NCBI GenBank assembly: GCA_003194425.1
Contig: PQXB01000001.1
Span: 790,444-822,443, forward strand
Origin: Candidatus Methanophagaceae archaeon
GTDB taxonomy: Archaea; Halobacteriota; Syntropharchaeia; Alkanophagales; Methanospirareceae
Direction of reading: 5' to 3'
DNA length: 32,000 bases
Every line of letters begins with the position of its first letter. Position 1 is the first letter of the stretch. The position numbers and the translations under genes were made by a program. Positions 1 to 29,828 of the stretch are shown here, piece after piece. Under the pieces are notes generated by a model. The model was given only the letters and a program-made list of their open reading frames with translations, ran no database searches and had not been told where the DNA came from.

Positions 1-977
1 AAAACATTGTGCGACGGGTGTGGCAGCCTGCTCTCCTTGTACGCAAAGACCTTCCCCTTCTCTGTCCCCGCGTTCCGCACCGACAGGTAATTCTTTGACC
101 TGTAGTGAATATTTTCGGCGGGCAGGCTAAGCCCTTTCAAGGCGTCCGAAGCAAAATAAGTGTGCGAGAGGTCGTCTGCGTGAAAAAGCCCGTCTCTCGT
201 GAGCGAGAGGAAATGCTCGCTTGACATCGGCGCTTCTCGGAACAGCCGCACCTTTGCGAAGGTGAAAATTTCCTGCCCCTCTTTTATCTCGGTCTCCAAG
301 TCAGAGGTGGCGAACCCCGCCCGCTCCGCCTTCGTTACAATCGGAGTTATTTCCACAATTCTGTCGCCCTCCTGCAGCCCAGAAATAATGCTTCGCCCCC
401 TCGTCAGCCGTCCAATCACGGCGTCGGGACCGGTCCCGTAGGCAGCCTCGTGCTCCCGCTTGCTCACCATTAAGTAGGTCTTGCTGGGGTCAAACCCGCC
501 GAAGCCGAAGAAAACATCCCATTTTTTGTATTTCTGCTCGCCCCGCTGCACGCTCAGATTCGTCTTTATCGGTCCGATCGCAGTTACATTCTCGGTCTTC
601 CAACTTACCTCTCCACTGCCCTCTCCGCTGCCCTCTCCACTGCCCTCTCTACTGCCCTCTCTACTGCCCTCTCCGCCACTCCCGCCCCCGCGGAAGTTCT
701 TGTAATTCTCGTAAAATGCCTTTATTCCTGCTCCTGCCCCTTCTCCTTCTGCTTGGACGATTTTTATCCTTGCCTCTCTGCCTGCGCCTCTGCCTCTGCT
801 TCTGCCTGCGGTCTTCACTGCGAATTCGTGTTTTAACTCAACGCTCTCTTTTTCTGAAGTAACGGCTACTGCACAGCCCTGCTTGTAGCCCTCTTTGTAA
901 GCACCGAGTTCTGCGATAATCTCGCCCAACCTTCTACCTCGGACCTCCCGTGTCTCTCCGTTGAACTTGATTTTCAT
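1..977 (-). CDS. Conserved hypothetical protein, C-terminus cut by the window edge. Central and C-terminal part is weakly cyclophilin-like (possibly UPF0288 / methanogenesis-marker-3-like, unverified).
   Basis: This ORF is not in the supplied track, probably because it has no stop inside the window. Manual minus-strand translation from ATG at 977-975 gives MKIKFNGETREVRGRRLGEIIAELGAYKEGYKQGCAVAV...GTGPDAVIGRLTRGRSIISGLQEGDRIVEITPI...VRNAGTEKGKVFAYKESRLPHPSHNV. The frame stays open for all 325 codons to position 1. The + strand track ORFs 199..441 and 481..705 are low-complexity shadows. Confidence 0.55.
   Translation of the reverse strand, partial: MKIKFNGETREVRGRRLGEIIAELGAYKEGYKQGCAVAVTSEKESVELKHEFAVKTAGRSRGRGAGREARIKIVQAEGEGAGAGIKAFYENYKNFRGGGSGGEGSREGSREGSGEGSGEGSGEVSWKTENVTAIGPIKTNLSVQRGEQKYKKWDVFFGFGGFDPSKTYLMVSKREHEAAYGTGPDAVIGRLTRGRSIISGLQEGDRIVEITPIVTKAERAGFATSDLETEIKEGQEIFTFAKVRLFREAPMSSEHFLSLTRDGLFHADDLSHTYFASDALKGLSLPAENIHYRSKNYLSVRNAGTEKGKVFAYKESRLPHPSHNV
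608..679. repeat. 12-bp tandem repeat x6 (cctctcc[a/g/t][c/a]ctgc), in frame inside CDS 1..977
   Basis: Units read directly at 608-619, 620-631, 632-643, 644-655, 656-667 and 668-679. On the minus strand they encode the GSGEGSREGSREGSGEGSGEG insert. Confidence 0.9.
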
Positions 978-1084
978 AACAATTTCTTTTGGTGCGGGGT
1001 CTTTTTAAAGTTTTTCGTTTTTGTCTAAATAATGCTTTGAAGGTAAGGGCTTTAGAGAGTAAGTAAGTACGAGGGGTGTGAGTG

Positions 1085-1145
1085 GCGGGGGAGAAGGAGA
1101 AAGGTAGGGGAGAAGGAGAATGGCAGGGGAGAAGGAGAAGGGGTA
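1085..1145. repeat. Intergenic purine-rich tandem repeat, about 19-20 bp x3, core ggggagaaggagaa
   Basis: The core occurs at 1088-1101, 1107-1120 and 1126-1139, upstream of thyX on its sense strand. Confidence 0.8.
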
Positions 1146-1248
1146 AGTTGCGGGTAAGTGCAGGAGAGGAGAGCTTTACAGGCGAGAAGTTGAGGATTTT
1201 GTTAAGGCTGTAGCGGGTCTGAAAACGGAAGCAGCGGTTTAAAAAGAA

Positions 1249-1947
1249 ATGAAAGTGAAACTGCTCAGGGTAACGGAAGACGGGGTAGATTTGGTGGCGG
1301 AAACGGCGAAGGTAAGCGGTAGTCTGTCGGAGCAGAGTGCGGAAGAGATTCTCGGGCTAATTACGGAGAACGACTACTCGTCGGTTCTTGAGCACATTTC
1401 TTTCACCTTTGACATTTCGGAAATTAGCGTAGCGTTGAGCCGGGAACTGCTGGAGCACCGTGTAGGAGTGTCGCACACAGCGAGGAGCACGCGGTACAAC
1501 GAAGAGGAGGGCTTCGGCTACTTCGTGCCTGACGAGTTGAGCAAGAAGCAGAACTTTAACGCAAATCTGGCTTTTACGGCTGCGATGAGAAATGCAAAAG
1601 AGAGTTACAAAAAGTTGCGGAGGCTCGGCGTTGCGAGGGAGCAGGCGAGGTACGTTCTGCCGTTGGCTCTGCACACGCACTACGTGGTGACGATGAACGC
1701 TCGGAGCCTGATAAACTTTTTTATGCTTCGGCTCTGCGTTCGGGCGGCGCCAGAGATGCAAGCACTTGCAAAACGGCTGCACGAAATTTGTGTAGCAGAG
1801 TATCCAGATATTTTTTCGCGGGTCGGGTGCCGTGGGGTCTCTTGGGGTGTCTGCCCGGAGAACGAGGTCAGACCCGCGGGGTGCCCGTTCAAGGAGTGCG
1901 TGCCGACGAAGAGCGAGGTGAAGGCGAAAATGAAAAACCAAAAATAA
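1249..1947 (+). CDS. thyX: Flavin-dependent thymidylate synthase ThyX
   Basis: 232 aa. ThyX signature HR..S....S.RY is present as EHRVGVSHTARSTRY. The downstream MNARSLINFFMLRLCVRAAPEMQ segment is also typical of ThyX. Confidence 0.85.
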   Translation: MKVKLLRVTEDGVDLVAETAKVSGSLSEQSAEEILGLITENDYSSVLEHISFTFDISEISVALSRELLEHRVGVSHTARSTRYNEEEGFGYFVPDELSKKQNFNANLAFTAAMRNAKESYKKLRRLGVAREQARYVLPLALHTHYVVTMNARSLINFFMLRLCVRAAPEMQALAKRLHEICVAEYPDIFSRVGCRGVSWGVCPENEVRPAGCPFKECVPTKSEVKAKMKNQK

Positions 1948-3338: not shown

Positions 3339-4427
3339 TTACATTTCCTCAAAGAAGAACTCGCTGCACAACGGGTCTTCAGCCAAGTAGTCGCCGTCGC
3401 CGTTGAGGAACGCCCGCACGCGGCAGCCACCGCAAATTTCCTTGTGCCTGCACTCTGCACACTTTCCCTTCACCTCCCGATTTTTCAGTGCAACGAAGAC
3501 TCTTGAATTCAAAATCTCGCGAAGGCTCGTCTCCCTGAGATTCCCTGCTTTCACCTCCAACAACGGACACGGCACGACGTCCCCGTTCGGTTTTATGGAA
3601 AGCATTCCAGTGGCGGCACGGCAGCCCGGAATTTCGTTGTAAAAGAACTCGGGAACGAAGAGCCCCTGCTCCGCCTTCCGCTTCAGCACCACCCAGTACT
3701 GCGCCGCCTGCGTCGTGCAGATTTCAAGTTCCCTCCGCTTGTTCTGCTCCTCGTAGAGTAGCGAAAGGTTCTCGGCGTACTGAACGCTGCCGAGTTCGGT
3801 GTCTGCTGGCAGCCTTTCCTTGCCCCTGCCCATTGGAATGTAGTGAAAGAACCTGCACTGCCTCGCGCCCAAATCTGCAGCGATTTCAATAATCCGCCCC
3901 GTCTCCGCCTCGTTCTGCTTCATTATGCAGGGGTCGACCACCAGACCCAGCCCCGCTGCTCTGCAAGCCCTCGCCCCCTGCACTGCCTTCTCAAAGACGC
4001 CCTCGCCCCTGATGAAGTCGTGTGTCTCCTGCGTGCCGTCGATTGGAATTATGACCTCCTCGACCCCTGCTGCTTTTAGGCGACCAGCGACCTCCTCGTT
4101 CAGCAGCGTCCCGTTTGAAGCGAGGACGAGGTGCAAGCCCCGCTCCTTTGCGTGCGAAATAATCTCAAACAAATCCTCCCGCAGCAGTGCCTCGCCCCCG
4201 CCGAAGGTAACTCTCGCACCGGCACTGCCCGCACTGCCCTCTCCACCAGCTCCTGCACCTGCACCAAAGACCTCCGCTATTTCGTCAAGCACCGCGAAGC
4301 ACTCTGCTGTGCTCAGTTCGTCTTCCAACTGCGTCCCTGCTTCGTAGTAGCAGTGCTTGCACCTCAGGTTGCACTGCCTCGTGAGGTTCCAGTTGATGTT
4401 GTATTTTGGCATTAGACTAAACCTCAA
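3339..4427 (-). CDS. Radical SAM protein with C-terminal SPASM/twitch cysteine cluster (NirJ/AhbC/AhbD-like family)
   Basis: 362 aa. CX3CX2C motif is present as CNLRCKHCYY. FHYIPMGRGKE resembles the family vP.GRG motif. C-terminal cysteines: CRAATG...PCPLL...GKCAECRHKEICGGCRVRAF. The start overlaps the stop of the upstream gene by 11 nt. Confidence 0.8.
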   Translation of the reverse strand: MRFSLMPKYNINWNLTRQCNLRCKHCYYEAGTQLEDELSTAECFAVLDEIAEVFGAGAGAGGEGSAGSAGARVTFGGGEALLREDLFEIISHAKERGLHLVLASNGTLLNEEVAGRLKAAGVEEVIIPIDGTQETHDFIRGEGVFEKAVQGARACRAAGLGLVVDPCIMKQNEAETGRIIEIAADLGARQCRFFHYIPMGRGKERLPADTELGSVQYAENLSLLYEEQNKRRELEICTTQAAQYWVVLKRKAEQGLFVPEFFYNEIPGCRAATGMLSIKPNGDVVPCPLLEVKAGNLRETSLREILNSRVFVALKNREVKGKCAECRHKEICGGCRVRAFLNGDGDYLAEDPLCSEFFFEEM

Positions 4428-5025
4428 CTCCTCTTACCTTAAATCGTCTTACCACCAAGTGACTTATCATTGTGGCACCCAGGATTAGGTAGACGAGAGT
4501 GTAGAAGTTGGAGTTTAAATTCAGGAAGTAGAGCAGCGGGAAGAGAACGCCGCTAATGCTGATTGGAAGTCCTAAGAAAAGGCTCCTGCTCCTCATTATC
4601 TCAAACCTTGCGAGCCTGAGGATTCCCGCCAGGAGGAAGAAGGCGAGAGAGAAAATCGTTAAGAGGCTCAACGGCAGAACCACGACCCCGAATAAGACCG
4701 GGGCTACACCGAAGGAGACTAAATCTGACATCGAGTCGAGATGCATTCCGAACTCACCCTGCCTCTTAATCCGCCTCGCCACGTAGCCGTCAAAGAGGTC
4801 GAAGAAAAAGGCTGCGGGTAGTAGAATCATCGCAATTGTAAAACTCCTGTAGAGGACGAAGACCATTGCTAAAAAACCGCAGAACGCGTTTGCCAGCGTG
4901 AGAATGTCAGGCAGTTTTATCAGGTCTCTGAAGTGGTAGTCTGCTTCTTTCCTCTTTTTCCTCTTTTTCCCCTTTTTCTCTTTTTTCTCTTTTTTCATCG
5001 TTACCAAATTCGTGGCTCTCTGCAT
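4417..5025 (-). CDS. CDP-alcohol phosphatidyltransferase (archaeal polar-lipid headgroup synthase type)
   Basis: Signature D..DG..AR........G...D...D is present as FDLFDGYVARRIKRQGEFGMHLDSMSDLVSF. The protein is multi-TM. The N-terminus carries a K/E-rich tract. An alternative ATG lies at 4998. Confidence 0.8.
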   Translation of the reverse strand: MQRATNLVTMKKEKKEKKGKKRKKRKEADYHFRDLIKLPDILTLANAFCGFLAMVFVLYRSFTIAMILLPAAFFFDLFDGYVARRIKRQGEFGMHLDSMSDLVSFGVAPVLFGVVVLPLSLLTIFSLAFFLLAGILRLARFEIMRSRSLFLGLPISISGVLFPLLYFLNLNSNFYTLVYLILGATMISHLVVRRFKVRGVEV

Positions 5026-5057
5026 TAATTAAATCTCCCGATTAATTAAATCTCCCG
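5024..5057. repeat. Perfect 17-bp tandem duplication (attaattaaatctcccg x2) at a gene junction
   Basis: Copies at 5024-5040 and 5041-5057. The unit contains the last 5 codons plus the TAA stop of CDS 5042..6109. Confidence 0.95.
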
Positions 5058-6109
5058 TATCGAAAGTTCAGGTAGAGTAGCGAAACGTACCCGAAGCCGA
5101 GCGAAAACAGGTAAAATATGAACCGATCCAAGAGGGCGACTGACGCGGCTATCGTAGCAGAGATTCCAAAAGAGATGTACAATGAAATCATCAGCAACTC
5201 CGTGACCCCTGCTCCTCCGGGCATAAACAGGAAGTAACTCAGGAAAATAGAGAGCGAAATTACAACCACGACGGCAAAGAAAGAGGGGCGGTGCCCGAGT
5301 GCGAGGAAAAGCACAAAACTGCTCGCAAAGGTCAGCAGCCAGCCGAGAAAAGCCAGAATAATGTTCTCACTAACCTTCTTCTTGTCGTGGGACAGCCTTG
5401 AGAATGTTTGAGCGAACTCCCCTAACTTCTGCCTCACATACCCGTCAAAACCTTGCAAGGTCTTGAACCGCTGCCTGAGAAATGAAAACGGGCCGAAGTA
5501 GTAGATTTTTGAGATGATGACTTTTCCCTTGAAGCCCTCTCCTTCGTTCTTCTTTCGCTCGTTCTTCTCGTACTTCTCCTTCACTACGAAGCCCAGGAGG
5601 GGCAGACCAACGAGGAGAACCAGCACGAACTCCAGCAGCACCTTCACCAGCAGGGGCACGTTCTGAACGAATACAAGGACGAAGAAGATTGAGCAGACCC
5701 CCAAAAAACTCAGGACGCCGACTCCTGTAACCCGCTCAACCAAAATCGTAGAGAGGCAGGTCGCCTTGTCCTCTTTTATCTTCTTCGAGAGGAAGTAGGC
5801 TTTTAGCGGTCCGCCGCCGACCTGAGGGCCGGGCGTGGCGGTGTCCATAAAACTACCGGCGAGCAAGATCGCTAATAGTGAAAAAAAGGGCGCTCTTTTT
5901 ATGCCGTTCACGAATATCTGCCACTTTAAGTTCCGCACCAAGATGGAAGAGGCGTGAAGCGCCACGGCGAGAAAAAGGTAGCGCGGGTTAGCGCGCGCGA
6001 TTGTGCTGTAGAGGCTTGAGAACCCGATGTTCTGCATTATTAGGATTAAAATTAGAAGCAGCAGCGTTGCGGGAAGTAGCAGAAACTTAAGATTTTTCTT
6101 GGTTTTCAT
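5042..6109 (-). CDS. UPF0104 / lysylphosphatidylglycerol-synthase-TM-region-like (flippase-like) integral membrane protein
   Basis: 355 aa with about 8 hydrophobic spans. Overall pattern (RYLFLAVALHASSILVRNLKWQIF ... PGGAGVTE) resembles the TIGR00374/UPF0104 family. A K/E/G-rich insert (KEKYEKNERKKNEGEGFKGK) sits in a loop. Confidence 0.55.
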   Translation of the reverse strand: MKTKKNLKFLLLPATLLLLILILIMQNIGFSSLYSTIARANPRYLFLAVALHASSILVRNLKWQIFVNGIKRAPFFSLLAILLAGSFMDTATPGPQVGGGPLKAYFLSKKIKEDKATCLSTILVERVTGVGVLSFLGVCSIFFVLVFVQNVPLLVKVLLEFVLVLLVGLPLLGFVVKEKYEKNERKKNEGEGFKGKVIISKIYYFGPFSFLRQRFKTLQGFDGYVRQKLGEFAQTFSRLSHDKKKVSENIILAFLGWLLTFASSFVLFLALGHRPSFFAVVVVISLSIFLSYFLFMPGGAGVTELLMISLYISFGISATIAASVALLDRFIFYLFSLGFGYVSLLYLNFRYGRFN

Positions 6110-6137
6110 TTTTATTTCATTTTTCTGTTCTTTAAGA

Positions 6138-6746
6138 TTAAGAAATTGCGTAAGAGAGGATTTGTGCGTTAAACCCCGCGAACAAAGGAATTAAAAGGTT
6201 GTCGTCAATCTTGCTGACCACGGTCTCGACCACTGTCGCCGTCCCCGCCATCACAAGAATTACCAGCCACGACCAGGAGTTCAAGAAGGAGTGCAGGAAG
6301 ACGAACCCGATGAGTAGGTCAACGACAAACTCCGCCGTGCAGCCCTCGACCGCCCTGTCCTTCAGCCCTGGTAGCCAAGTCCTGCCGAACCGCTTGCCGA
6401 AAATTGCTGCTGCCGAGTCTCCAAAAGTAGTCATCAAAATCGCAGCCGAAGCGACCTCTTTGGAGAAGACGCTGACCGCGATTAGGGCGCCGATGAGGAA
6501 GAAGACGTTGCCGCTCAGCCTCTCCGCCTCCTTCTCGCGGTAAAGTTTGTGAAAGAGGGGCAGTTTTTGCCGAAGCTCGAGCCTGACGAACTCGACCTCC
6601 AAGAAAAGTATCAAGAACAAGGTCAGCAGCAGCAAAATTACCTCTTTTGGCAGGAAGTAGCAAAATACAACAATCAGCACGGAGGTGGCGTGCACCGCCT
6701 TTCTCTGAAGTTCCCTCTTCAGACTGAATTCTTCTTGCGTTTCCAT
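6138..6746 (-). CDS. Polyprenol/dolichol kinase - phosphatidate cytidylyltransferase family membrane protein (COG0170-like)
   Basis: 202 aa, multi-TM. N-terminal LKRELQRKAVHA (RK..H motif) and the GDSAAAIFGKRFGR segment are typical of the CTP-dependent polyprenol kinase / CdsA superfamily. Confidence 0.55.
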   Translation of the reverse strand: METQEEFSLKRELQRKAVHATSVLIVVFCYFLPKEVILLLLTLFLILFLEVEFVRLELRQKLPLFHKLYREKEAERLSGNVFFLIGALIAVSVFSKEVASAAILMTTFGDSAAAIFGKRFGRTWLPGLKDRAVEGCTAEFVVDLLIGFVFLHSFLNSWSWLVILVMAGTATVVETVVSKIDDNLLIPLFAGFNAQILSYAIS

Positions 6747-6762
6747 TCTTCAGGCTCTAAAC

Positions 6763-9700
6763 TCAACGCTCCAACCGAGAAGCAACCGCTACCGTCAAAT
6801 CCTCAACTTCAAAATCCCCTCCCTCCCCTCCTCTTTCTTTAGTAAAGCTTTCTTTTTTTAAGTCCCCCCTTTCTTTAGTAAAGCTTTCTTTTTTTAAGAA
6901 AGGTTTAAAGAAAGGTTTTAAAAAAACTTTTGCACAGTCAAGGTGAATCCAGCACTTTGGGCAGGACACAACCAGCTTGGACGCACCCGTCTCTTCAGCC
7001 TCCGCCAGCCGTTCGATTTGCGTCGCCTTTGCCACCGGGCCACAAGTTAGCATCGCACTTACGCCGCAGCACTCCGCTCGCTCCCGGTTGTGTGCCATTT
7101 CCTGTAATTTTACACCCGGAATTCTGCTCAAGACCTCTCTCGGTGCCTCGTACACGCCGAGGTGCCGTAACCTGCAGGGGTCGTGGTAAGTAACAACCTC
7201 CTCTTTCCCTCCGCTTTCAACGAACCTCAACTCCTTGTCCCTCAAAAATTCGGAGAGGTGTAAAACCTGAAACCCCAATTCTGAGCTCTCTAAAAATCGC
7301 CGGTAGTCCTTCTCAAAAGTCCTGAGGCACTCTGCACAGGTAAAAACCACCGTCTTCGCCCCGCTCCTTCTTACCACTTCTACATTCGCCTTCACCAACG
7401 CCTTAAAACTCTTCTCGTCCCCTGCCCAAAGCAAGTCGTGGCCACAGCACTTCTCTGTACCGCTCACCGCAGGAACGACGCCGACTGAGTTGAGCAGCCG
7501 TACCGCACTCCTCGCAATTTCAAGCAGCCTCAAATTCTTACGGTCGCTGTACACTCGGTCGAGGTAAGAGAGGCAGCCCGAGAAGTAGTAGACCTCGCCC
7601 TTCTCCGAAACTTTCAGTCCCTCCTCCTCGCTACCCTCCTCTCCCTCCACCTCAAGCCACCTCAGCCTGCTCTCCTCCCTGCCCGCTCCCTTCTCTACAC
7701 TCACTACTTCAGCAGCCGAGCCAAAGAAGTGTGGCACGCTGCCCCTACTCAACGCCAAGCTTCTCGCACCCTGAACAAAACGCAAAAAATCTACCTCGTA
7801 AGGGCAAACCGCGTCGCAGACGCCACAGGTCGTGCACTTCCAAATTTCCTCACTCAACACCAGTTTCTCCGCGTCCTCAGACAACGCCAAACCCGAAAGC
7901 AGTCTTGGTGAGAAGCCGGGCTCCTTCGCGGTTACAGGACACAACGCCGTGCAAACCCCACACTCCACACATTTATTCACACCCGTAGCGTAAGCCAACG
8001 CGTCTACAAACTCCCCTGCGTCTCCCTCTCCCTTACCCTCTCCCTCTACCCTTCCCTCTACCCCTCTCTCCTGCCTCGGAAAGCTTAAAAGACAGCTCCT
8101 ACAGTTGAAACACCGTTCAGCCTCCTCAACCGCGTCGTCCTCTGAAAGCCCGACCTCAACCTCCTCAAAACTCGTTCTCCTCTCCTCCGCTCCAATTCTC
8201 CTCCCTACCGCCTCCTTTCTCCTTCTCCTCCTTACTAACCCTCTCTTTGCCTCGTCCTCCAACTCTTCTCTCACGCACACCTCCTCTTCGGGCAACTCCT
8301 CTGAAACTTTTACCGACGCTCTACCCTTTTTTAAATCCTCGCCCCTCAAACTCAAACCCCTCAAGAACCTGTCAATTGTCTCGGCAGCCTCGTTACCGTC
8401 TGCAACAGCCTCAACTGCGAACGCCGCACCACGAACGCAGTCGCCACCCGCGAACACTCCCTCCGCCGCACTAACACAAAACTCGTCTGCCACAACTCTC
8501 CCTTCTCTCCCTCCTCCTTTCCCCCCGCTCCCGACTGTTTCGACCCCGCTACCCTCAAGAAACCTCAAGTCCGACGCCTGCCCTACCGCGGGAATTACCG
8601 TGTCCACCGCCACCAAGAACTCCGAGCCACGAACGGGAACTGGACGCCTCCTTCCCGACTCGTCCTGCGGACCCAACCTCATCTTTACAAGCTCTAATTT
8701 TTCTACCCTCTCCTCCCCTCCTCCCCCTTCTCCCCCTCCTGCTCCGGCTCCTCCTACCTTTGCAGCACTCCCTAAAATCCTCGTTGGGCTCGCCAAGAAC
8801 ATAAATTTCACGCCCTCCTCCTCCGCTTCCCGCACCTCTACCTCACTCGCCGGCATCTCCTCTCGCGACCTCCTGTAAACGACGGTCACCTCCGAGCAGC
8901 CCAACCGCAACGCCGACCTCGCTGCGTCTACCGCTACATTTCCGCCACCCACCACTGCAACCCTCTTCCCTGCTACTCTTTCAAGACCTTTCCCAAGATT
9001 AAAATCACGCAGGAAATCAAGACTCGAAACAACTCCCTCCAAATCCTCGCCCTCGACTTCAAGCCTTCTGCTCACATCCGCGCCAACAGCGACAAAAACC
9101 GCGTCGTACTCGCCACGAATCCGCTCGAACTCCTCTCTACCAATCTCAACCCCTGTCTCAACCTCTATTTTTTCCCCCCTTCCCTCTCCTGCAACAGAAA
9201 AAACAACCGCCTCAATCTCCTTTTTCAGAACTTCTTTTGGCAGCCTGTACGGCGGAATACCAGCGAAGAGCATTCCCCCCGCCACAGGCAACTTCTCAAA
9301 GACCTTTACCCTGTACCCCTTCCCCGCCAACCGCCACGCCGCAGTCAGCCCCGCAGGACCCGCACCAACAACCGCTACTCTTTTACCTCTTTCGTTTTCC
9401 CCCTTGCTTTTCCCCTCTCTTTTCTCCTCTCTTTTCTCCTTCTTTTTCCCTTCACCCCCTCCCTTCTCTCCCTCCTCCTTTCCCCCCGCCTTCTCCAAGA
9501 CCGTGTCGCCAACGAACCGTTTTAAAGCGGCGACAGCAAGAGGGTCGTCAAAAAAACCTCGCTTGCAGTTCGCCTCGCAGGGGTGGTTGCAAATCCGCCC
9601 GAGAGTAGCAGGAAAAGGAATCGTCTCCCGAATTAGCGAGTACGCCTCCTCGTACCTGCCCTCCGAAATTAGTTTGATGTAACCTTGAGCGTCACAGCCT

Positions 9701-9807: not shown

Positions 9808-9840
9808 TCGACAGCCTTCTGCTACCTCTAATCTAAAAGC

Positions 9841-9868
9841 CTCACCTCAGTGCCCTCACCTCAGTGCC
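9841..9868. repeat. Perfect 14-bp tandem duplication (ctcacctcagtgcc x2) spanning a stop codon
   Basis: Copies at 9841-9854 and 9855-9868. The unit includes the TGA stop and last codons (GH*) of CDS 9861..10715. Confidence 0.95.
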
Positions 9869-10715
9869 CTCCTTCCTCCACTTCCTCTGCCGGAGTCACT
9901 GCGTAGCCGACAAGCGAGACGATGAAGCTCAAGCAACTGCGGTACGCCTTGCTCAAAGCCCTCGTTTGTGCCATACTTCGCACCTGAAATATCGGTCGTC
10001 GCTTCCAGTTCGCCTCGTCTGACATGCACATCGCCTCTGCTGCAGAGACCGTGTTTCCTTCGCTGTCTTTGATGACCGCCCGAGCCTCGAACCCTTTCGC
10101 ACCCCACAACTCCACAGGTTTCGTCCACTCGATGAACGCTGTGAGGTTGCAGAACCGCCCGAGAGTCTGCCACGCCTCCAACTGCAGATATTTCTTCCCG
10201 TGCATTTCTTGGTAGAGGTGCTGTTTCTCGACAATCGCGTAGAGGCTGTCTGCTTTCTGCTGTGCGTCCGCGACAATTTCCTTCTCGCCTTTTGGCGTTG
10301 GCAGTTTTGGCGTTGGCAGCGCTGGCAGGACCGCTCCCGCTACAACTTCCTCCCTCTTCTCCAAGTCCTCTTCTCCCTCTCCTTCGGCGACCGCGTAGAA
10401 CCTCTTAACCACCTCCAAATCCTTCAGTTCCTCCTCAGGCAAGAATTTGTCGTTCTGAAGTGCCCAGAACCTGCCGGTCGGGTGTTGCTCGGTGAAAGTC
10501 CTGCCCAGCGTCAAGTCGCCCTCTCTCAAAATAAACCGCACCTTGCCGTCGCTCTCCCGCTTCTCGTGAAACCCCAAACTTCTTAAAACCCCCTGGTAGC
10601 GTCTGGCTTTGGCTTCCTCGCTCTCTCCTTCCTCCTCCTCCTCTTTTTGCTCTTGCTCCTCTTCTTCTACTTCTTCTTCTACTTCTTCTTTTTCTGTCTC
10701 TTCCTCTTCTCTCAT
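9861..10715 (-). CDS. Hypothetical protein with acidic N-terminal tail. The C-terminal ~130 aa may be a Redbeta/RecT-like single-strand-annealing fold (tentative).
   Basis: 284 aa. C-terminal GFEARAVIKDSEGNTVSAAEAMCMSDEANWKRRPIFQVRSMAQTRALSKAYRSCLSFIVSLVGYAVTPAEEV aligns by eye with the lambda Redbeta segment I recall as ...CRIYRKDRNHPICVTEWMDEC...PKRMLRHKAMIQCARLAFGFAGIYDKDEAE. The comparison is from memory only. Confidence 0.35.
   Translation of the reverse strand: MREEEETEKEEVEEEVEEEEQEQKEEEEEGESEEAKARRYQGVLRSLGFHEKRESDGKVRFILREGDLTLGRTFTEQHPTGRFWALQNDKFLPEEELKDLEVVKRFYAVAEGEGEEDLEKREEVVAGAVLPALPTPKLPTPKGEKEIVADAQQKADSLYAIVEKQHLYQEMHGKKYLQLEAWQTLGRFCNLTAFIEWTKPVELWGAKGFEARAVIKDSEGNTVSAAEAMCMSDEANWKRRPIFQVRSMAQTRALSKAYRSCLSFIVSLVGYAVTPAEEVEEGGH
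10290..10319. repeat. 15-bp in-frame tandem duplication (ttttggcgttggcag x2)
   Basis: Copies at 10290-10304 and 10305-10319. They encode LPTPKLPTPK in CDS 9861..10715. Confidence 0.95.
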
Positions 10716-11406: not shown

Positions 11407-11412
11407 AACTTC

Positions 11413-13365: not shown

Positions 13366-13374
13366 CCTTAATAA

Positions 13375-13437: not shown

Positions 13438-13444
13438 AAGGTTT

Positions 13445-17947: not shown

Positions 17948-17965
17948 GATGCGAGGAGAAGAGAG

Positions 17966-21061: not shown

Positions 21062-21637
21062 TTACCGAAAGCGGAGTGCCGCTCTCGCCGCCAGTTTCGC
21101 AACCCGCAGCGGCTCTGGCACTTTTCCGTGCGTCGTGAATTTTTTAAGCACCGCAGTAGCCTCGCTCTTCTGCAAACCAAAGAGCCGCACTAAAACCACG
21201 AAACCGCTGCTCAACTTTACAGGAACGCGACTCCCCAGTCGCTTGTAAGCCAGTAGTCGTGAATCTCGCTCGGCGGCTTCGAAATGCCTGGCAATGTGTT
21301 CTTCAAGACCCGCGGATTCCTCGTAAGTCACGCAGACAAGCGGAACTCGCAGCCGTTCGTAGACCGCTCGCAAGTCCACAATGTTGAACCAACTGACGAC
21401 GCAGCCGTTTAGCAGCACCAGATTTATGTCCGCGCGTTGCAGCGACTCGAAGACCTGCAGAACTCCCTGCGTGGCGTCTGCTCCGCCTACGGTCGCCTTG
21501 CCAAACGCAAGACCGTCTACAACAAAATCCGAACGCATCACGACGCCCGCGAGTACAGACTTCTCCCGGTCTCGCCGGAAGCTCTCTGCAATTCCGAGTG
21601 CTCTCAGCCCTTTTTTGTTTATGTGCAGTGGCATCAC
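21062..21637 (-). CDS. UPF0215 / DUF99 family protein (endonuclease-V-like fold family)
   Basis: 191 aa. LRALGIAESF...LAGVVMRSDFVVDGLAFGKATVGGADATQGV...INLVLLNGCVVSWFNIVDL...PLVCVTYE matches the DUF99 pattern (GiDD..f....lvGvv.r....dG.....i.vDG.DaT ... vmLdGi...gfNvvD). Confidence 0.65.
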   Translation of the reverse strand: MMPLHINKKGLRALGIAESFRRDREKSVLAGVVMRSDFVVDGLAFGKATVGGADATQGVLQVFESLQRADINLVLLNGCVVSWFNIVDLRAVYERLRVPLVCVTYEESAGLEEHIARHFEAAERDSRLLAYKRLGSRVPVKLSSGFVVLVRLFGLQKSEATAVLKKFTTHGKVPEPLRVAKLAARAALRFR

Positions 21638-22273: not shown

Positions 22274-22729
22274 TTATTTCAATTCCTTCCTCGCTACAGC
22301 CCCACTTACCCGCAACGCGTTTATTAAATATTCACAAGCCCTGAACGCCGCCTTTCTGTGCCCCGCACCTACCAAAATAGCAACGATGCTCTCCCCAACT
22401 ACCAACGAGCCCTTACGATGCACGATTTCCACAGCCTCAACGCCAAACCGCTCCACCGCCTCTCGTTTCAACTCCTCAAACTCTCTCTCTGCCTTCGCCT
22501 CGTCGCCAACCACAATTTCCAGCCCTTTTATTTTTTTCCCCTCTTCACCCGTTTTGCCTGTCTCCGTGCCTGTCTCCGTGCCTGTCTCCGTGCCTGTCTC
22601 CGTGCCTGTCTCCGTGCCTGTCCCCGCCCGCACTACACCGAGGAAAGACACAATCGCGCCTACCTCCGGCTTCCTCTCCTTTACCGCCCTCGCGAGTTCG
22701 TCAAGGGAAAAATCCTGCTCGGCAATCAT
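22274..22729 (-). CDS. moaE: Molybdopterin synthase catalytic subunit MoaE
   Basis: 151 aa. GAIVSFLGVVR...VEIVHRKGSLVVGESIVAILVGAGHRKAAFRACEYLINALR matches the MoaE core (G.v..F.G.vR ... HR.G.l..ge..v.v.v.s.HR..AF.a....id.lK). It is interrupted by a (TGTE)5 insert. Confidence 0.75.
   Translation of the reverse strand: MIAEQDFSLDELARAVKERKPEVGAIVSFLGVVRAGTGTETGTETGTETGTETGTETGKTGEEGKKIKGLEIVVGDEAKAEREFEELKREAVERFGVEAVEIVHRKGSLVVGESIVAILVGAGHRKAAFRACEYLINALRVSGAVARKELK
22556..22627. repeat. 12-bp in-frame tandem repeat (gcctgtctccgt), 5 perfect copies plus 1 degenerate
   Basis: Units at 22556-22567, 22568-22579, 22580-22591, 22592-22603 and 22604-22615, with a degenerate unit at 22616-22627. 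Confidence 0.95.
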
Positions 22730-22776: not shown

Positions 22777-22820
22777 AGATGAGGTGGAAGGAGGAGAAAG
22801 ATGAGGTGGAAGGAGGAGAA
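22777..22820. repeat. Perfect 22-bp tandem duplication (agatgaggtggaaggaggagaa x2) containing a start codon
   Basis: Copies at 22777-22798 and 22799-22820. ATGs lie at 22779 (out of frame) and 22801 (start of CDS 22801..23520). Confidence 0.95.
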
Positions 22821-23520
22821 GGAGGAGCTCGGAAGGGAGGTTGTGCGTTTGTTGTACGAGAAGGGGCTGATTAAGACCTGGCTTCGGGACAACCCACGCG
22901 GTTGGACGCTCGTCTCTGGCTTGTGGAGTCCCTTCTACATCCAACTGCGACCCCTCTCTTCGTACCCTGAACTGCTCGGAAAGGTAGGGCACGCGCTGGG
23001 AAGGTTGGTCAAGGAAGAATGCAAAGGCGTGACTAAAGTGGTTGGCGTGGCGATGGCAGGAATTCCGCTTGCCTGCGCAATGGCTTTGCAAGCAGGCTTT
23101 CCTGCCCTCTGGACAAGAGAAAGAGAAGGGAAAAATCTTCAAAATTACGGCGAGCACACACTCGTGGAAGGCGTGCTTGAGAACGGCGACAGGCTTGCGG
23201 TCGTCGACGATTTGGCGACGAAATTTGACTCCAAACTCGCCGCGATTGAGCAACTAAACCGCGAGGCGGAGAGGAGAGGGGTCACTGTCGAGTGTAAGCA
23301 CGCGGTCGTTTTACTTGACCGAGAGCAGGGGGCTGCTGAAGTCGCCAGTCAGCACGGCGTCTCTCTTCACTGCCTCGTCCCTTTTAAATCCGCAGCAACA
23401 GAATGGCTGAAATCTTCGCTCTCTGAAACCGAATACAAAGTCCTCACCGAGTACCTGCGGGACGAGAAGAGATTTCAGTTTAGAGAAAAAAAGTTGCGAC
23501 GATCAGACCCGACTCAATGA
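22801..23520 (+). CDS. Orotate-phosphoribosyltransferase-like type I PRTase with an atypical PRPP-binding loop
   Basis: 239 aa. WTLVSGLWSPFYIQLRPLSSYPELL resembles the OPRT F.L.SG..SP.Y.d.R motif. The PRPP motif is LAVVDDLATKFDSK instead of the usual VDDV.TTGgS. Confidence 0.6.
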   Translation: MRWKEEKEELGREVVRLLYEKGLIKTWLRDNPRGWTLVSGLWSPFYIQLRPLSSYPELLGKVGHALGRLVKEECKGVTKVVGVAMAGIPLACAMALQAGFPALWTREREGKNLQNYGEHTLVEGVLENGDRLAVVDDLATKFDSKLAAIEQLNREAERRGVTVECKHAVVLLDREQGAAEVASQHGVSLHCLVPFKSAATEWLKSSLSETEYKVLTEYLRDEKRFQFREKKLRRSDPTQ

Positions 23521-24219: not shown

Positions 24220-24374
24220 GGAAAGAGGGGAAAACTTGCTTGCGTGTTTGTTTTTGGATTTGTCTTCGCAGCACTAGGAGTAGGGGCGCCGCCCCCAACC
24301 ACGTGCCTACAGGTGCAGGGAAAGGGGTAGTAGAAGGAGAAGGAGGAGTAAAGCAAGCCTGCCGAGGTAGGAGA

Positions 24375-24400
24375 GAGTTGCAGAGAAGAGTTGCAGAGAA
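24375..24400. repeat. Intergenic 13-bp tandem duplication (gagttgcagagaa x2)
   Basis: Copies at 24375-24387 and 24388-24400. Confidence 0.95.
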
Positions 24401-24436: not shown

Positions 24437-24706
24437 CTACTTGTAAACCTTTTCTCTATGCTCAAATGTGATGAAGATGATTTTATCGGCGTTTAATTTG
24501 TAAATAATTCTGAACTTTCTGACCCTAACAGAGCGGCAGTTTCGGAAAGAATATCTCAGCGGTTTGCCTATTTCTGGGTTCTCTGTAATTTTCTTGACGA
24601 CCTTTTCGAGCTCTTCTTTAAACGCACCTTTAAGCTGACGTGTGTCCTTCAAAAATTTAAGCTGACGTGTGTCCTTCAAAAATCTGTTTGTGAACTCCTG
24701 ATTCAT
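24437..24706 (-). CDS. RelE/ParE-family type II toxin
   Basis: 89 aa. C-terminal RSVRVRKFRIIYKLNADKIIFITFEHREKVYK matches the RelE/ParE pattern (R.R.g.yRiiY.i......i..i.hR...Y). It lies 12 nt downstream of the small antitoxin ORF. Confidence 0.75.
   Translation of the reverse strand: MNQEFTNRFLKDTRQLKFLKDTRQLKGAFKEELEKVVKKITENPEIGKPLRYSFRNCRSVRVRKFRIIYKLNADKIIFITFEHREKVYK
24630..24683. repeat. Perfect 27-bp in-frame tandem duplication inside the toxin gene
   Basis: ttaagctgacgtgtgtccttcaaaaat occurs at 24630-24656 and 24657-24683. It encodes FLKDTRQLK twice near the toxin N-terminus. Confidence 0.95.
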
Positions 24707-24718
24707 TTGTTCTTGTTC

Positions 24719-24946
24719 TTATTCTTGCTCCTCTCCTTGCTTGACCTTGAGCGCCTTCTCAAACTCCGCGAACCCGTAAACCCGCCCCTCTTCGATGTCC
24801 GCCAGCCCTTCCTTTATCTTCCCCGCGAACTCATTATCCAAAATTATCTCCAGCTCCTCCCGTAAAGCATCCAAATCATCTCGTATCCCTGAAATCAACC
24901 CCAGAATACCGTCAAAATCCTCCCTCTTTATTGCTATCTCTTCCAT
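24719..24946 (-). CDS. Putative antitoxin (small acidic protein upstream of the RelE-like toxin)
   Basis: 75 aa, acidic, in the classic antitoxin-first operon position. The IKEGLADIEEGRVYGFAEFEKAL segment resembles archaeal RelB/ParD-type antitoxin C-termini. Confidence 0.55.
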   Translation of the reverse strand: MEEIAIKREDFDGILGLISGIRDDLDALREELEIILDNEFAGKIKEGLADIEEGRVYGFAEFEKALKVKQGEEQE

Positions 24947-25126: not shown

Positions 25127-25168
25127 GTAAAGGGGAGGGAGAGGAGTGTAAAGGGGAGGGAGAGGAGT
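25127..25168. repeat. Perfect 21-bp tandem duplication (gtaaaggggagggagaggagt x2) overlapping the right direct repeat of the TA cassette
   Basis: Copies at 25127-25147 and 25148-25168. Confidence 0.95.
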
Positions 25169-25207
25169 TGCCGTTTTAGGTTAGGCGGCTCTCCTGTTTT
25201 TTTCCTG

Positions 25208-25222
25208 TTTTTTATTTTTATT
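25208..25222 (+). promoter_or_regulatory. TATA-like A/T box upstream of hmgA
   Basis: ttttttatttttatt ends about 23 nt before the ATG at 25245. This is consistent with a leaderless or short-leader archaeal promoter. Confidence 0.3.
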
Positions 25223-27270: not shown

Positions 27271-28029
27271 ATGAAAAAAAACAACTTTTTCCAAGCAGCG
27301 TTCAGGATCGCGGAGAAGGACTTGCGGACCGAATTCCGGCGGTCTTACGAAGTCCTCTCAATCCTCTCCTTCTCGGTCGGCTCAATTCTGATCTGCAGTT
27401 TCGCGTGGAGTGGCGGTTCTGCCACTTCAGGACCAGAAGAGGCAGCCGCAGCGCTCTGGGTTATTCTCTTCTTCACGAGCATTCTCGTGTTTACAACCTC
27501 TTTTACACGCGAAGCCGACCGCGGAACGCTCGGCGGTCTAAAGACGCTGCCCTGCTCGCCGCTCGCAATTCTCTTCGGTAAAATTATTTACGGAACCGCA
27601 CTGCTTGTTCTCGTGGAGTGCGTGCTAATTCCTTCTTCGGTCGTTTTCTTAAACCTCGATTTTTTGGGTAGGGGATTTCCCGCACTCTTGCTCGTCTGCC
27701 TCTTGGGTGCGGTCGGGCTCTCGTTCGCAGGCTCGTTCGTCTCGGGGCTCGTGATGTTTTCAGAAAGCAAAACCCTGCTTCTCTCTTTTCTGCTCATTCC
27801 AGTTTCTATGCCGGTGCTAATTCCGTCGGTCGTGGCGACGCGAAAAATCGTCAGTGCTTCGGTAGCAGGCGTAGGTGTAGGAGGCGTGGGTGTAGGAGGC
27901 GTGGGCGTAGGAGGTGTGAGAGGTGTAGGGCTAACAGAAGTGCTGCCGGAGTTACGGCTGCTAACCGCTTTTCTTCTCCTGATAACCGCGATAATGGTCC
28001 TCACATTCGAGTTCGTGCTTGAAGATTAA
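27271..28029 (+). CDS. ccmB: CcmB-like ABC exporter permease (heme exporter protein B family)
   Basis: 252 aa with six hydrophobic spans. IAEKDLRTEFRR and FTREADRGTLGGLKTLPCSPLAILFGK match CcmB motifs (rDlrl..R ; f..E.e.GTle.l...P......l.gK). A (GVGVG)n insert lies near the C-terminus. Confidence 0.6.
   Translation: MKKNNFFQAAFRIAEKDLRTEFRRSYEVLSILSFSVGSILICSFAWSGGSATSGPEEAAAALWVILFFTSILVFTTSFTREADRGTLGGLKTLPCSPLAILFGKIIYGTALLVLVECVLIPSSVVFLNLDFLGRGFPALLLVCLLGAVGLSFAGSFVSGLVMFSESKTLLLSFLLIPVSMPVLIPSVVATRKIVSASVAGVGVGGVGVGGVGVGGVRGVGLTEVLPELRLLTAFLLLITAIMVLTFEFVLED
27868..27930. repeat. 15-bp in-frame tandem repeat, about 3-4 copies (ggcgt[a/g]gg[t/c]gtagga)
   Basis: Units at 27868-27882, 27883-27897 and 27898-27912, with a degenerate continuation to about 27930. 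Confidence 0.9.
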
Positions 28030-28196
28030 TTTGAATAAAGATAAAAAGAAGAATAAATTGGCGAAGAAGTAACGAAGTAACCTAAAGTGGTCTTAAGGGG
28101 TTTGGGGTCGTAGATCCCTGAGACAGGGTGCGACCTGAATAAACAGGTCATAAAGGAGGGAATAGCAGCTAAAAAATGCTGATATTGAGATAACAA

Positions 28197-29153
28197 ATGA
28201 ATATATGCATGGTATTGGGGAGTTTTTTTCCACCTGACATTCGTGTTGAGAAGGAAGCCAGAGCTTTAATCAGTGCAGGACACAGAATATTTCTTCTTTC
28301 ATTGGGGAAAAAAAGTATGCCAGCAGTAGAAGACATTAAAGGTATAAATGTTATTCGTGTTTTCCCTGCTGAGAGCTTTCTAAACAGAATGCGGAGATTT
28401 CTTTGGTTTAACATATTTTTTGACGACTCTTTCTGGAAAAGAAGTTTGGAGGGGGTTATTAAACAATATAAAATCGAGATTGTCCACGTTCATGATTTGC
28501 CGATGGTGAAAACCGCAACAACTGTTGCCAAAAAGTTCGATATTCCTATAATTGCTGATTTACATGAAAATTACCCAGAGGGAATGAGGGCTTGGAGAAA
28601 GGTAAAGATGAGTTGGAAGAGTAAAATCTTTAATCTGATTTCGCCTGTGTGGAGGTGGAAGCGATTAGAGCGGTCGGTGCTCCAGCACGTGGATAGAATA
28701 ATTGCCGTGGTTGAGGAGTCAAAGGAGCATTACATTAATGATTGTGGAGTGCCCCCTGAAAAGATAACTGTGGTGATGAATGCTGAAGACTTGGAAGATT
28801 TTGGCAATTTAGAAATAGATGAATCTTTAGTTAGAAAATATAAAAATAACTTCGTCATTTCCTACATTGGCGGTTTTGGACCTCACAGGGGAATGGACAC
28901 CGCGATTAAAGCAATGCCTGATGTTGTAGAAGAAATACCAGATGCAAGGTTGCTTCTGGTCGGTGGAAAGGGCTCGGAAGAATATGAAGAAGAGTTGAAG
29001 AAATTGTGCAAAGAGTTGAAAGTCGAAAACAATGTTGAATTTACTGGCTGGGTTGATTTTCGTCTGGTTCCTTCTTTTACCGCTTTGAGTGATGTTTGCC
29101 TTGTGCCGCATCATGCAAGTGGGCACACGAATACAACCATTCCTCACAAACTA
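28197..29153 (+). pseudogene. GT4-family glycosyltransferase, 3'-truncated (loses homology right after ...TTIPHKL)
   Basis: N-terminal FFPPDIRVEKEARALISAGHRIFLL and C-domain FVISYIGGFGPHRGMD...LLLVGGKG...VEFTGWV...ALSDVCLVPH are GT4-like. The expected continuation (P.KllEYma.G.PVi) is missing and the track ORF tail (LSLCNISYDQ...) looks like nonsense. The region is A/T-rich. Confidence 0.6.
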
Positions 29154-29533
29154 TTATCCCTCTGCAATATTTCTTATGACCAACTATTTCAAGTCGAGAG
29201 ATTTGAATCCGCCAAAAGTAACTTCTATTATAACTTCATCCGAAACTTTACTGCCAGAACATAGAACAGAGATAGAAAATTTCTGGGGTTGCAAAGTATA
29301 TGATTGGTATGGCTTAGGCGAAAGAGTCGCAGCCATAGGCGAATGTGAAGACGGCGGATTTCATATAAACCTTGAATATGGCATTGTTGAGTTTAAAGAT
29401 GTTAGTGGAAGCAACCAAAAAGAGATAATCGCGACCAGTTTTTGGAATTTTGCTATGCCTCTTATCAGATACTCTACCAGAGACCTTATAACTCCTTCAA
29501 CCAACAGCAAGTGTTCCTGCGGTAGAAGTTTAC
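29143..29533 (+). pseudogene. Internal/C-terminal fragment of a CapK / F390-synthetase-like (PaaK-type adenylate-forming) enzyme
   Basis: A different frame from the GT reads LTNYYPSAIFLMTNYF...VTSIITSSETLLPEHRTEIENFWGCKVYDWYGLGERVAAIGECEDGGFHINLEYGIVEF...IRYSTRDL...CSCGRS. This matches the middle-to-late part of CapK/PaaK-like proteins. There is no N-terminal half and no proper C-terminus. Confidence 0.55.
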
Positions 29534-29828
29534 TCACCGATCGCCTAACGCACACCCAACATCCAAAATCTTTATCTTCTTTTTCGTCGGCAGTATTGTC
29601 TTCAATATTTTGATGTAGCGGTCGTATCTGAATTTCTGTGAGCCACGCCAGTGGTGTCCCCAGCGGTCACCTTCTTCTCCAATATTCTTAAACATAGATT
29701 CAGCCACGCCAGTGGTGTCCCCAGCGGTCACCTTCTTCTCCAATATTCTTAAACATAGATTCAAACCATTCTTTAGTGCCCCCTTTCTCTCCCAAATCTT
29801 TGATATTAGATCTCTGATGTTTAGACAT
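29534..29828 (-). pseudogene. N-terminal fragment of a class I SAM-dependent methyltransferase, disrupted by a 61-bp tandem duplication and truncated after motif I
   Basis: From ATG 29828 the frame reads MSKHQRSNIKDLGEKGGTKEWFESMFKNIGEEGDRWGHHWRG and then hits TGA created by the duplication. Collapsing the duplication restores ...GSQKFRYDRYIKILKTILPTKKKIKILDVGCALGDR (motif I), which stops at the junction with the CapK fragment. Confidence 0.6.
29641..29762. repeat. Perfect 61-bp tandem duplication
   Basis: agccacgccagtggtgtccccagcggtcaccttcttctccaatattcttaaacatagattc occurs at 29641-29701 and 29702-29762. Confidence 0.95.

Follow-up and report, generated by a model that had tools for sequence, protein, structure and literature searches.

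Two reports describe microhomology-mediated tandem duplication (MTD), first from S. pombe and then across bacteria, archaea and fungi (PMC8639346; bioRxiv 10.64898/2026.02.28.708716). The rate of MTD rises when rad27 (FEN1) is deleted; species with fewer than 10 loci per genome were dropped from the preprint concerned, and variable archaeal loci were too few to analyse (bioRxiv 10.64898/2026.02.28.708716). Spontaneous tandem duplications occur in the pyrE/pyrF mutation spectra of Sulfolobus acidocaldarius (PMC7785828). Across 687 archaeal genomes the density of short tandem repeats (STRs) is the lowest of any domain, with no enrichment over chance, and the highest STR density is that of Plasmodium falciparum (PMC12699852). 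Archaea being the least repeat-rich domain, the lineage described here is an outlier needing explanation. It is represented by a 32,000-nt stretch of DNA (the window) from an anaerobic methanotrophic archaeon of the ANME-1c (Methanospirareceae) type with a 52% GC genome. We consider it probable that in this lineage tandem duplications of 9-61 bp arise or persist at one to two orders of magnitude above the level of its sisters, through replication slippage or a microhomology-mediated process, and are then filtered by selection.

When CetZ from the window was compared with archaeal contigs representing one genome per species, 52 loci were matched, belonging to Methanophagales (ANME-1), Syntrophoarchaeum-like archaea and Methanocellales, with a best identity of 78%; the set does not include the species of the window. 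A 99%-identical copy of a 284-aa window protein carries the NCBI name 'Candidatus Methanospirareceae archaeon', and Methanospirareceae is the thermophilic ANME-1c family (10.1101/2022.07.04.498658). Same-species contigs were recovered by exact-protein matching and one metagenome scan, and derive from Logan re-assemblies SRR6664617 and SRR6664622, several JGI metagenomes, ENA assemblies (ERZ27248172, ERZ27227317, ERZ27248454, ERZ1742239 and others) and an NCBI metagenome-assembled genome (MAG). Gene calls were compared with the pipeline calls on these strain contigs.

Arrays were called with Tandem Repeats Finder (TRF) and an exact scan for tandem duplications, the 36-bp pair at 6830/6866 being found by a repeat search. 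A first-pass annotation of the window had named 20 arrays, and all 20 were recovered within a few bases and with the periods it gave. Its description of most as perfect copies did not hold, as about half of all TRF arrays are perfect; the 36-bp pair (6833) is 97% identical rather than perfect, the 19-bp array placed at 19867 is present but starts at 19861 with 91% matches and one indel, and the 6-bp array at 11988 is real but is a composite of 6-, 12- and 18-bp periods. Perfect arrays beyond that list lie at 4222 (9 bp), 4948 and 4973 (9 bp), 9414 (12 bp), 10660 (12 bp), 13372 (12 bp, intergenic), 14702 (11 bp), 19301 (9 bp), 25127 (21 bp, intergenic) and 25192 (11 bp). The 105 TRF rows merge into 40 arrays covering 6.7% of the window, and the exact scan gave 30 perfect tandem duplications with a period of at least 9 bp (28 merged loci), 22 with a period of at least 12 bp and 8 with a period of 9-11 bp. 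Order-1, -3 and -5 Markov resamplings of the window, used as the chance baseline, gave 0.2-0.4 for periods of 9-11 bp and 0-0.03 for periods of at least 12 bp. Composition alone was rejected as the cause, these models yielding about 0.4 perfect duplications of at least 9 bp versus the 30 observed.

Density was then set against 755 kb of control sequence from 62 loci, nearly all from other ANME-1 or Methanocellales. Perfect loci with a period of at least 9 bp number 8.75 per 10 kb in the window versus 0.69 in the controls (13-fold), and those with a period of at least 12 bp 6.56 versus 0.17 (38-fold), a result that bears out the very high density and the very active duplication proposed in the first-pass annotation. 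TRF coverage is roughly 0.6% in relatives, and other contigs of the focal lineage carry 7-14 perfect loci per 10 kb. Microsatellite-type repeats with 1-9 bp units are just 1.5-fold above controls, and the excess is specific to longer units of at least 9 bp. High-GC, purine-loaded relatives (L026, L031, L032, L038 and L041) are poor in tandem duplications, so that composition or thermophily alone is insufficient. Two further candidates for duplication-rich lineages were also rejected. The ANME-1-LC locus L039 has a raised TRF count and the highest repeat density of any control (3.7% of bases), but its 6-22 bp arrays cluster locally around one gene at 5600-7900 and could mark a surface protein rich in repeats, not a property of the whole genome. 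Contigs L079-L085 encode a 69%-identical GemA-like homologue of the 284-aa protein, but come from an unrelated lineage of 38% GC in which duplications are almost absent.

The same arrays recur in more than 10 independent assemblies (Logan, JGI, ENA and the NCBI MAG) made from different samples with different assemblers. Logan contigs are identical to the window over many arrays, and non-Logan contigs share numerous arrays exactly, including the MoaE 12-bp x6 array and the 22-bp, 13-bp and 19-bp duplications. Ends of Logan contigs from SRR6664617 and SRR6664622 fall inside or beside arrays (window 664, 5554, 14221, 25166 and 29734), and their tendency to end within arrays (664, 14221, 25166 and 29734) indicates that arrays are hard to assemble, a point in favour of an assembly, polishing or amplification artefact. 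Allelic differences consist of whole units, and errors would not yield the frame dependence described below. An assembly or polishing artefact is excluded, as the first-pass annotation had held, and artefact of any of the three kinds is hardly credible. Two of the end sites, the 21-bp pair at 25127 and the single-copy site at 5558, are too short to cycle in a k=31 de Bruijn graph; contig ends at such sites hint at copy-number heterogeneity within one sample.

Thirteen strain segments were aligned to the window (56,186 bp, 358 mismatches, 0.64%), revealing 35 unique indels, of which 29 are at least 6 bp long; all but about two of the 29 are whole-unit gains or losses at arrays. Alleles with one and two copies were observed at 6833 (36 bp), 9840 (14 bp), 15759 (18 bp), 18030 (15 bp), 24629 (27 bp) and 17953 (10 bp), two versus three copies at 10290 (15 bp) and 14702 (11 bp), and three versus four at 16532 (9 bp). 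Further copy-number differences occur at 14200 (2.7x versus 3.7x) and at 5558 (1x versus 4-5x of a 15-bp unit). Each strain also holds duplications missing from the window, such as that at 17953, present twice in L053 and once in the window, and an added 9-bp unit at 2111. Copy-number alleles at this low divergence agree with the earlier proposal that the events are recent or ongoing. As a control, 22 pairs from other ANME-1 loci at 95-97.5% identity (107,671 bp, 3,569 mismatches) contained 80 indels, mostly of 1-3 bp, with 19 of at least 6 bp and 7 of at least 9 bp. Indels of at least 6 bp per substitution thus amount to 0.103 in the focal lineage versus 0.0053 in other ANME-1 (19-fold, Fisher p = 1e-24) and indels of at least 9 bp are 51-fold more frequent, a contrast somewhat inflated by the 2.5-5% divergence of the control pairs versus 0.64% in the focal set, because young polymorphism keeps more deleterious variants. 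In a second control, seven contigs from seven samples of the unrelated 38%-GC archaeal lineage (L079-L085), one unique 6-bp indel was present among 614 pairwise mismatches.

The first-pass annotation had also claimed that every array inside an intact coding sequence (CDS) has a period divisible by three (3n), other periods falling between genes, over gene boundaries or in an inactivated gene, and tabulation of period modulo three showed this bias. Within CDSs 18 of 20 perfect arrays have a 3n period, versus 2 of 10 between genes or over start or stop codons (Fisher p = 3e-4), and polymorphic indels of at least 6 bp behave likewise, 19 of 20 being 3n in CDSs versus 2 of 9 outside. One of the two exceptions is a 16-bp periodicity within a composite GGAA/GGAG array that encodes part of the N-terminus of TFB, a site at which strains differ by an in-frame 42 bp. 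As the second exception, a 61-bp duplication in a methyltransferase fragment creates a TGA at its junction. It had been held to inactivate its gene, and the stop codon is present; with one copy removed, however, no more than 77 aa of the methyltransferase N-terminus are regained, so the gene was already truncated. Perfect arrays are also unevenly distributed, with 3.4 per kb in the non-coding 9% of the window, which holds one third of them, versus 0.69 per kb in coding sequence. These data support a frame filter by selection acting on both fixed arrays and polymorphisms.

An alternative is an ordinary duplication rate combined with weak purifying selection, whereby in-frame insertions that are slightly deleterious, and duplications between genes, would accumulate by drift in a population of small effective size or very slow growth. 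Inserts do lie within the otherwise conserved CetZ, V-ATPase C, MoaE and TFB, gene-breaking duplications persist in a glycosylation island (below), and the coding and non-coding densities imply that about half of the expected in-frame events are seemingly tolerated. Frameshifts in core genes are nevertheless clearly purged, as the 18 of 20 and 19 of 20 counts indicate; drift would lift every indel class, whereas the excess is specific to tandem units of at least 9 bp; and density is greatest between genes, where selection matters least. Other slow-growing ANME-1, including high-GC thermophilic L026, L032, L038 and L041, lack the pattern, and we regard weak selection at an ordinary rate as unlikely.

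The polarity of the events was established by comparison of seven window proteins with their orthologues. At least 25 residue runs are unique to the window lineage, nearly all located at TRF arrays, versus 0-2 columns per protein of extra residues in relatives. Examples are an 18-aa G-rich insert in CetZ, (GT)n in V-ATPase C and RGARGAR in the PRC-barrel protein. As the inserts are confined to the window lineage, the arrays are derived insertions, and their sequences indicate that the duplication process is old enough to have left degenerate low-complexity inserts. The arrays, in window coordinates, are as follows.

608-674: 12-bp array x5.6 in CDS 3-977 (minus strand), a GSGE/GSRE-type insert missing from orthologues (TRF, exact scan); window 24-27 bp longer than L074, L075 and L077
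776-810: imperfect 6/12-bp array in CDS 3-977, giving a lineage-specific SRGRGAGR versus orthologues (TRF)
1084-1152: intergenic 19-bp array x2.9 with an adjoining imperfect 11-bp duplication at 1141 (TRF); 11-bp copy missing in L074-L077
2111-2130: 9-bp array in a small ORF called at 74-77 aa in strains (TRF); one extra unit in L074, L075 and L076
4222-4239: perfect 9-bp x2 in a radical-SAM/SPASM CDS (TRF, exact scan); also in Logan L078
4948-4996: two 9-bp arrays (starts 4948 and 4973) in the K/E-rich N-terminus of a CDP-alcohol phosphatidyltransferase CDS; window 9 bp longer than L075
5024-5057: perfect 17-bp x2 spanning the start codon of gene 4417-5025 and the stop codon of gene 5042-6109, doubling the TAA...ATG junction (TRF, exact scan); also in Logan L078
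5558-5578: 15-bp-unit site in an LPG-synthase-like CDS, about one unit in the window and 3-4 more in strains (L074 +60 bp, L075 +45 bp); protein of 355, 365, 370 or 375 aa among strains
6830-6931: 36-bp x2 (97%) and 12-bp x2.8 at the C-terminus of a 1014-aa GltD/HdrD-like CDS; 36-bp copy missing in L075, L074 +12 bp
8021-8070: 6/12/18-bp array in the same 1014-aa GltD/HdrD-like CDS (TRF); L074 and L075 +9 bp
9378-9451: 12-bp array x6 (79% matches, perfect core 9414-9440) in the same CDS, whose protein has six length alleles (1003, 1003, 1009, 1014, 1026 and 1036 aa)
9840-9871: perfect 14-bp x2.3 over the stop codon of gene 9861-10715; single copy in L074
10290-10319: perfect 15-bp x2 in CDS 9861-10715; 3 copies in L074
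10613-10748: stacked 3n arrays (3, 9, 12, 15, 18, 21 and 42 bp; perfect 12-bp array at 10660) in an acidic N-terminus; 3-bp indel versus L062 and L074
11076-11112: perfect 18-bp x2 in an AAA_17 kinase-like CDS (TRF, exact scan)
11346-11409: intergenic 16-bp x2.5 with 8-bp microhomology, upstream of gene 10769-11359; L060 one unit fewer
11988-12032: 6/12/18-bp array in an MmoB-like CDS; L060 -18 bp, L062 +6 bp
13371-13445: intergenic 12/27-bp array between M42 peptidase and V-ATPase C genes; L062 -12 bp, L060 -26 bp
14200-14263: 24-bp x2.7 in the V-type ATPase subunit C CDS, a (GT)n/E insert missing from orthologues; L060 one unit more
14702-14723: perfect 11-bp x2 immediately upstream of ATG 14725; 3 copies in L060
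15690-15827: 18-bp arrays (perfect core 15759-15797) in a Gly-X-Y-like C-terminus; L071 one unit fewer
16532-16558: perfect 9-bp x3 in the PRC-barrel protein CDS, 4 copies in L071; insert missing from 40 orthologues
17435-17496: degenerate 12/24-bp array, the G-rich 18-aa CetZ insert (TRF); missing from 50 orthologues
18030-18060: perfect 15-bp x2 in CDS 17966-18820; single copy in L053
19301-19320: perfect 9-bp x2.2 in the SecF CDS; common to L053
19861-19902: intergenic 19-bp x2.2 (91%, one indel) upstream of the SecF start; common to L053
20037-20119: composite 4/12/16-bp purine array in the TFB N-terminal extension; L053 42 bp shorter, in frame
22555-22626: 12-bp x6 in the MoaE CDS, encoding (GTET)n; identical in three JGI contigs
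22777-22836: 22-bp x2.7 over start codon 22801; common to L053-L055
24128-24220: intergenic 23-bp x4; L054 allele 32 bp shorter and diverged
24374-24400: perfect intergenic 13-bp x2; common to L054
24629-24683: perfect 27-bp x2 in the ParE toxin CDS (+9 aa); single copy in L054 (80 aa versus 89 aa)
25127-25213: perfect intergenic 21-bp x2 (25127-25168) and 11-bp x2 (25192-25213) upstream of the HMG-CoA reductase gene; Logan L057 begins within the 21-bp pair and includes the 11-bp pair
27862-27918: 15-bp x3.8 in an ABC-2 permease CDS, encoding (GVGVG)n; identical in Logan L057
29641-29763: perfect 61-bp x2 in the methyltransferase fragment (minus strand), low-GC island; Logan L072 ends within

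The last of these lies in a low-GC (30-39%) cell-surface glycosylation island comprising window 28000-32000 and L072 1-7262, which was probably acquired horizontally. It encodes glycosyltransferases, a UDP-GlcNAc 2-epimerase, a UDP-glucose/GDP-mannose dehydrogenase and a Wzx-like flippase. In the 7.3 kb to the right of the window a 16-bp duplication splits the UDP-GlcNAc 2-epimerase gene and a 28-bp duplication the Wzx-like flippase gene; deletion of one copy restores intact open reading frames of 363 aa and 434 aa, respectively. The gene-breaking 16-, 28- and 61-bp duplications show that frameshifting duplications do arise, and that they survive where constraint is plausibly weak or where loss of function is tolerated or even an advantage.

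These three frameshifting duplications in surface glycosylation genes would suit a view of the arrays as selected contingency loci, acting as programmed reversible switches of promoters, ribosome-binding sites and surface or glycosylation genes. Nearly every intergenic region has an array adjacent to a start codon (5024, 11370, 13372, 14702, 17953 in L053, 19861, 22777 and 25127), and such tandem duplications reportedly revert with ease (PMC8639346). The arrays are, however, scattered over housekeeping genes of all kinds, and no intact CDS carries a frame-toggling non-3n array of the type expected for phase variation, those in intact core CDSs all being 3n. The island duplications were recovered only as disrupted two-copy alleles, and the simplest reading of the intergenic excess is a lack of constraint. 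Selected contingency is consequently a very unlikely account of the arrays.

Several window genes and strain differences may be mentioned beside the arrays. The 383-aa protein encoded at 14725-15876 has a collagen-like Gly-X-Y C-terminus (15690-15876; GERGNKGERGNK...) built by the 18-bp array, and this accounts for its weak matches to phage tail-fibre and Scl collagen-like adhesin families. The ParE toxin gene and that of a small antitoxin form a pair at 24437-24946. Nothing unusual was noted in the ThyX thymidylate synthase at 1249-1947, typical of ANME-1 in the literature, or in the endonuclease dU (NF052283, PF01949) at 21062-21637. Strain contigs L074 (5696-8058), L075 and L086 carry, between window positions 6109 and 6139, a 2.4-kb, 41%-GC insertion that the window lacks; with its N6/N4 DNA methyltransferase gene and several small ORFs, this segment resembles a variable islet of restriction-modification type. 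Contig L086 (6057-8565) also has genes absent from the window between the DUF22 and MmoB-like genes, encoding a 618-aa IF-2B/HD-CE-domain protein and a retropepsin-like aspartic protease. On its left side the window is flanked by 6.7 kb with genes for an ABC-F ATPase, HSP20, HEM4, a LigA-type ligase and a thermosome subunit, and protein lengths vary among strains there.

The mechanism was approached through the duplication junctions. Microhomology of at least 3 nt is present at 8 of 25 duplications versus 5% expected (p = 2e-5), and at the youngest events, where one- and two-copy alleles coexist, the arms in the single-copy alleles measure 1, 1, 3, 3, 4, 5 and 8 nt. The purine/pyrimidine skew of the units is modestly above random (0.49 versus 0.33, p = 0.01). 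Hairpin-induced stalling was rejected as the driver, since reconstructed single-copy sites fold less readily than randomly drawn windows do (mean z = +0.72, p = 0.001), as were transposon target-site-duplication footprints, since the periods (9, 11-18, 21, 22, 23, 27 and 61 bp) are continuous with no preferred length. Fill-in of staggered nicks or double-strand breaks, followed by end joining with or without microhomology, could duplicate the overhang without homology. Such repair would fit the 17 of 25 junctions with 0-2 nt of microhomology, a distribution near chance, and thermophily may imply a heavy load of DNA damage. It fits less well with unit sizes ranging as widely as 9-61 bp and with the clear excess of microhomology of at least 3 nt; later whole-unit changes of arrays are of a kind expected from slippage, and strain comparisons revealed no filler or templated insertions at junctions. 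Nor did any gene for end joining come to light, though a search for such genes was not possible. Break repair is therefore an improbable main source.

Two gene products were considered as causes and set aside. The 284-aa protein (9861-10715), considered as a chromosomal single-strand-annealing factor, begins with acidic repeats and ends in a domain that matches only phrog_19042 (no known function), with no sequence match in Pfam, NCBIfam or PDB; an annealing function finds no support. Its distant homologues carry Pfam GemA (PF06252). In L079-L085 the homologue adjoins PDDEXK and HNH nuclease genes, an arrangement that suggests a mobile-element origin. The roughly 46 kb covered contains no replication gene. 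The one ligase noted nearby, an NAD+-dependent LigA of bacterial type (712 aa), has its gene beside that of the thermosome about 6 kb to the left (L074 20234-20888, L076 10535-11105), but as a lineage-specific oddity it was dismissed, 70%-identity homologues in other ANME-1 (GoMg2) making it order-wide.

These data are consistent with replication slippage and microhomology-mediated duplication under selection, which may be pictured as follows. During replication, itself the presumed setting, the nascent strand would disengage and re-pair a short distance back, often on a direct repeat of 3-8 nt (that is, MTD) and possibly in the course of lagging-strand (Okazaki-fragment) maturation, converting one copy into two. 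Once two copies are present, slipped-strand mispairing would add or remove whole units, leading from two copies to three and on to six, and with time arrays would decay into low-complexity protein inserts. Selection would purge frameshifts from functional genes and let in-frame events survive in tolerant loops and termini, whilst all period classes could survive between genes and over start and stop codons. The chance excess, lineage specificity, polymorphism, insertion polarity, frame filter and mixed microhomology signature are direct observations. The raised rate may stem from changes in flap processing, in a polymerase or in repair, or from an unusually slow reversal of duplications. A bolder proposal, and one we put forward only tentatively, is that of a natural, long-lived tandem-duplication mutator, in which lagging-strand maturation or loop repair (e.g. 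Fen1, PolD, PCNA or NucS) would have been heritably altered, raising the rate of 9-61 bp duplications 20-50-fold, steadily inflating proteins with low-complexity inserts and supplying the population with reversible variants of promoters and glycosylation genes.

Some results, the inflated indel contrast noted above among them, weigh against this interpretation. About 46 kb of the genome was covered in total (the window with flanks of 6.7 kb on the left and 7.3 kb on the right), so that a genome-wide property is an extrapolation, and the left 6.7 kb contains 4 perfect duplications at 3 loci, a lower density than in the window. Junctions without microhomology make up 9 of 25 versus 56% expected and those with 1-2 nt a further 8 of 25; junctions of 0-2 nt are not distinguishable from chance, and a purely microhomology-driven process cannot cover the majority of events. 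In the coding sequence of the window 44-56% of direct repeats of 4-6 nt spaced by 9-61 bp lie at a 3n distance (44-72% for repeats of 4-8 nt). Microhomology-driven duplication is thus intrinsically biased to in-frame products, and part of the 3n bias is mutational substrate rather than selection. The 3n excess is still significant relative to this baseline (p = 1e-3 to 2e-5), and in-gene duplications with 0-1 nt of microhomology are 3n in 8 of 8 cases (p = 1.5e-4), so that the filter by purifying selection put forward in the first-pass annotation is upheld by fixed and polymorphic events alike. Lastly, the apparent raised rate could instead reflect slow loss or weak selection.

A full-text literature search for links between ANME-1 and tandem duplications found nothing, and a study of structural variants in ANME-1 left out variants of 50 bp or less. 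The class of mechanism is known; what appears new is an archaeal lineage in which short tandem duplication dominates genome micro-evolution, of which no published description was found. The archaeal genetics controlling short tandem duplication is poorly known, and comparison of duplication-rich with duplication-poor Methanophagales offers a natural experiment through which the responsible replication or repair factor might be reached. In practical terms, short-read assemblies of the organism fragment at arrays, and protein lengths differ between 99%-identical strains, one protein having six length alleles. Strain typing, orthology calls and estimates of the ratio of nonsynonymous to synonymous polymorphism (pN/pS) for these uncultured methane oxidisers will be distorted unless arrays are handled explicitly.

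Among known systems, S. acidocaldarius resembles the lineage in being a thermophilic archaeon whose spontaneous mutations include tandem duplications as a recognised class. There, however, duplications account for some 10-15% of the forward mutations of a reporter gene and do not shape the genome, and we know of no report of a comparable standing density in Sulfolobus. Bacterial variable-number tandem repeat (VNTR) and contingency loci, as in Burkholderia pseudomallei, Haemophilus and Neisseria, share hypervariable copy number between close strains, and promoter or 5' coding positions, with the arrays described here. Classical contingency loci consist of 1-9 bp units toggling the frame of specific surface genes, whereas the present arrays have units of 9-61 bp, keep to 3n periods wherever the gene is intact, and are spread over housekeeping genes. 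Another parallel is P. falciparum, with slippage-made, lineage-specific low-complexity inserts in conserved proteins across the proteome; its inserts are AT-rich, of microsatellite type and in a eukaryotic host. Yeast rad27 (FEN1) mutants reportedly acquire duplications of about 5-108 bp flanked by repeats of 3-12 bp, an observation attributed to Tishkoff and colleagues in 1997. The 9-61 bp size range, tandem layout and partial dependence on short direct repeats seen here match that signature and make Okazaki-flap processing a candidate cause, although here only about one duplication in three has flanking repeats and the lineage is natural and evolutionarily stable rather than a laboratory mutant. 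With MTD the lineage has in common that short single-copy segments are duplicated head to tail, junctions enriched in microhomology of at least 3 nt, within-species series of one-, two- and three-copy alleles (one and two copies coexisting), expansion into arrays of at least three copies, and roughly a third of events without microhomology, a proportion within the range given in the preprint for fixed duplications. The lineage differs from MTD elsewhere in its density of about 9 perfect loci per 10 kb and in an excess that is lineage-specific within one archaeal order.

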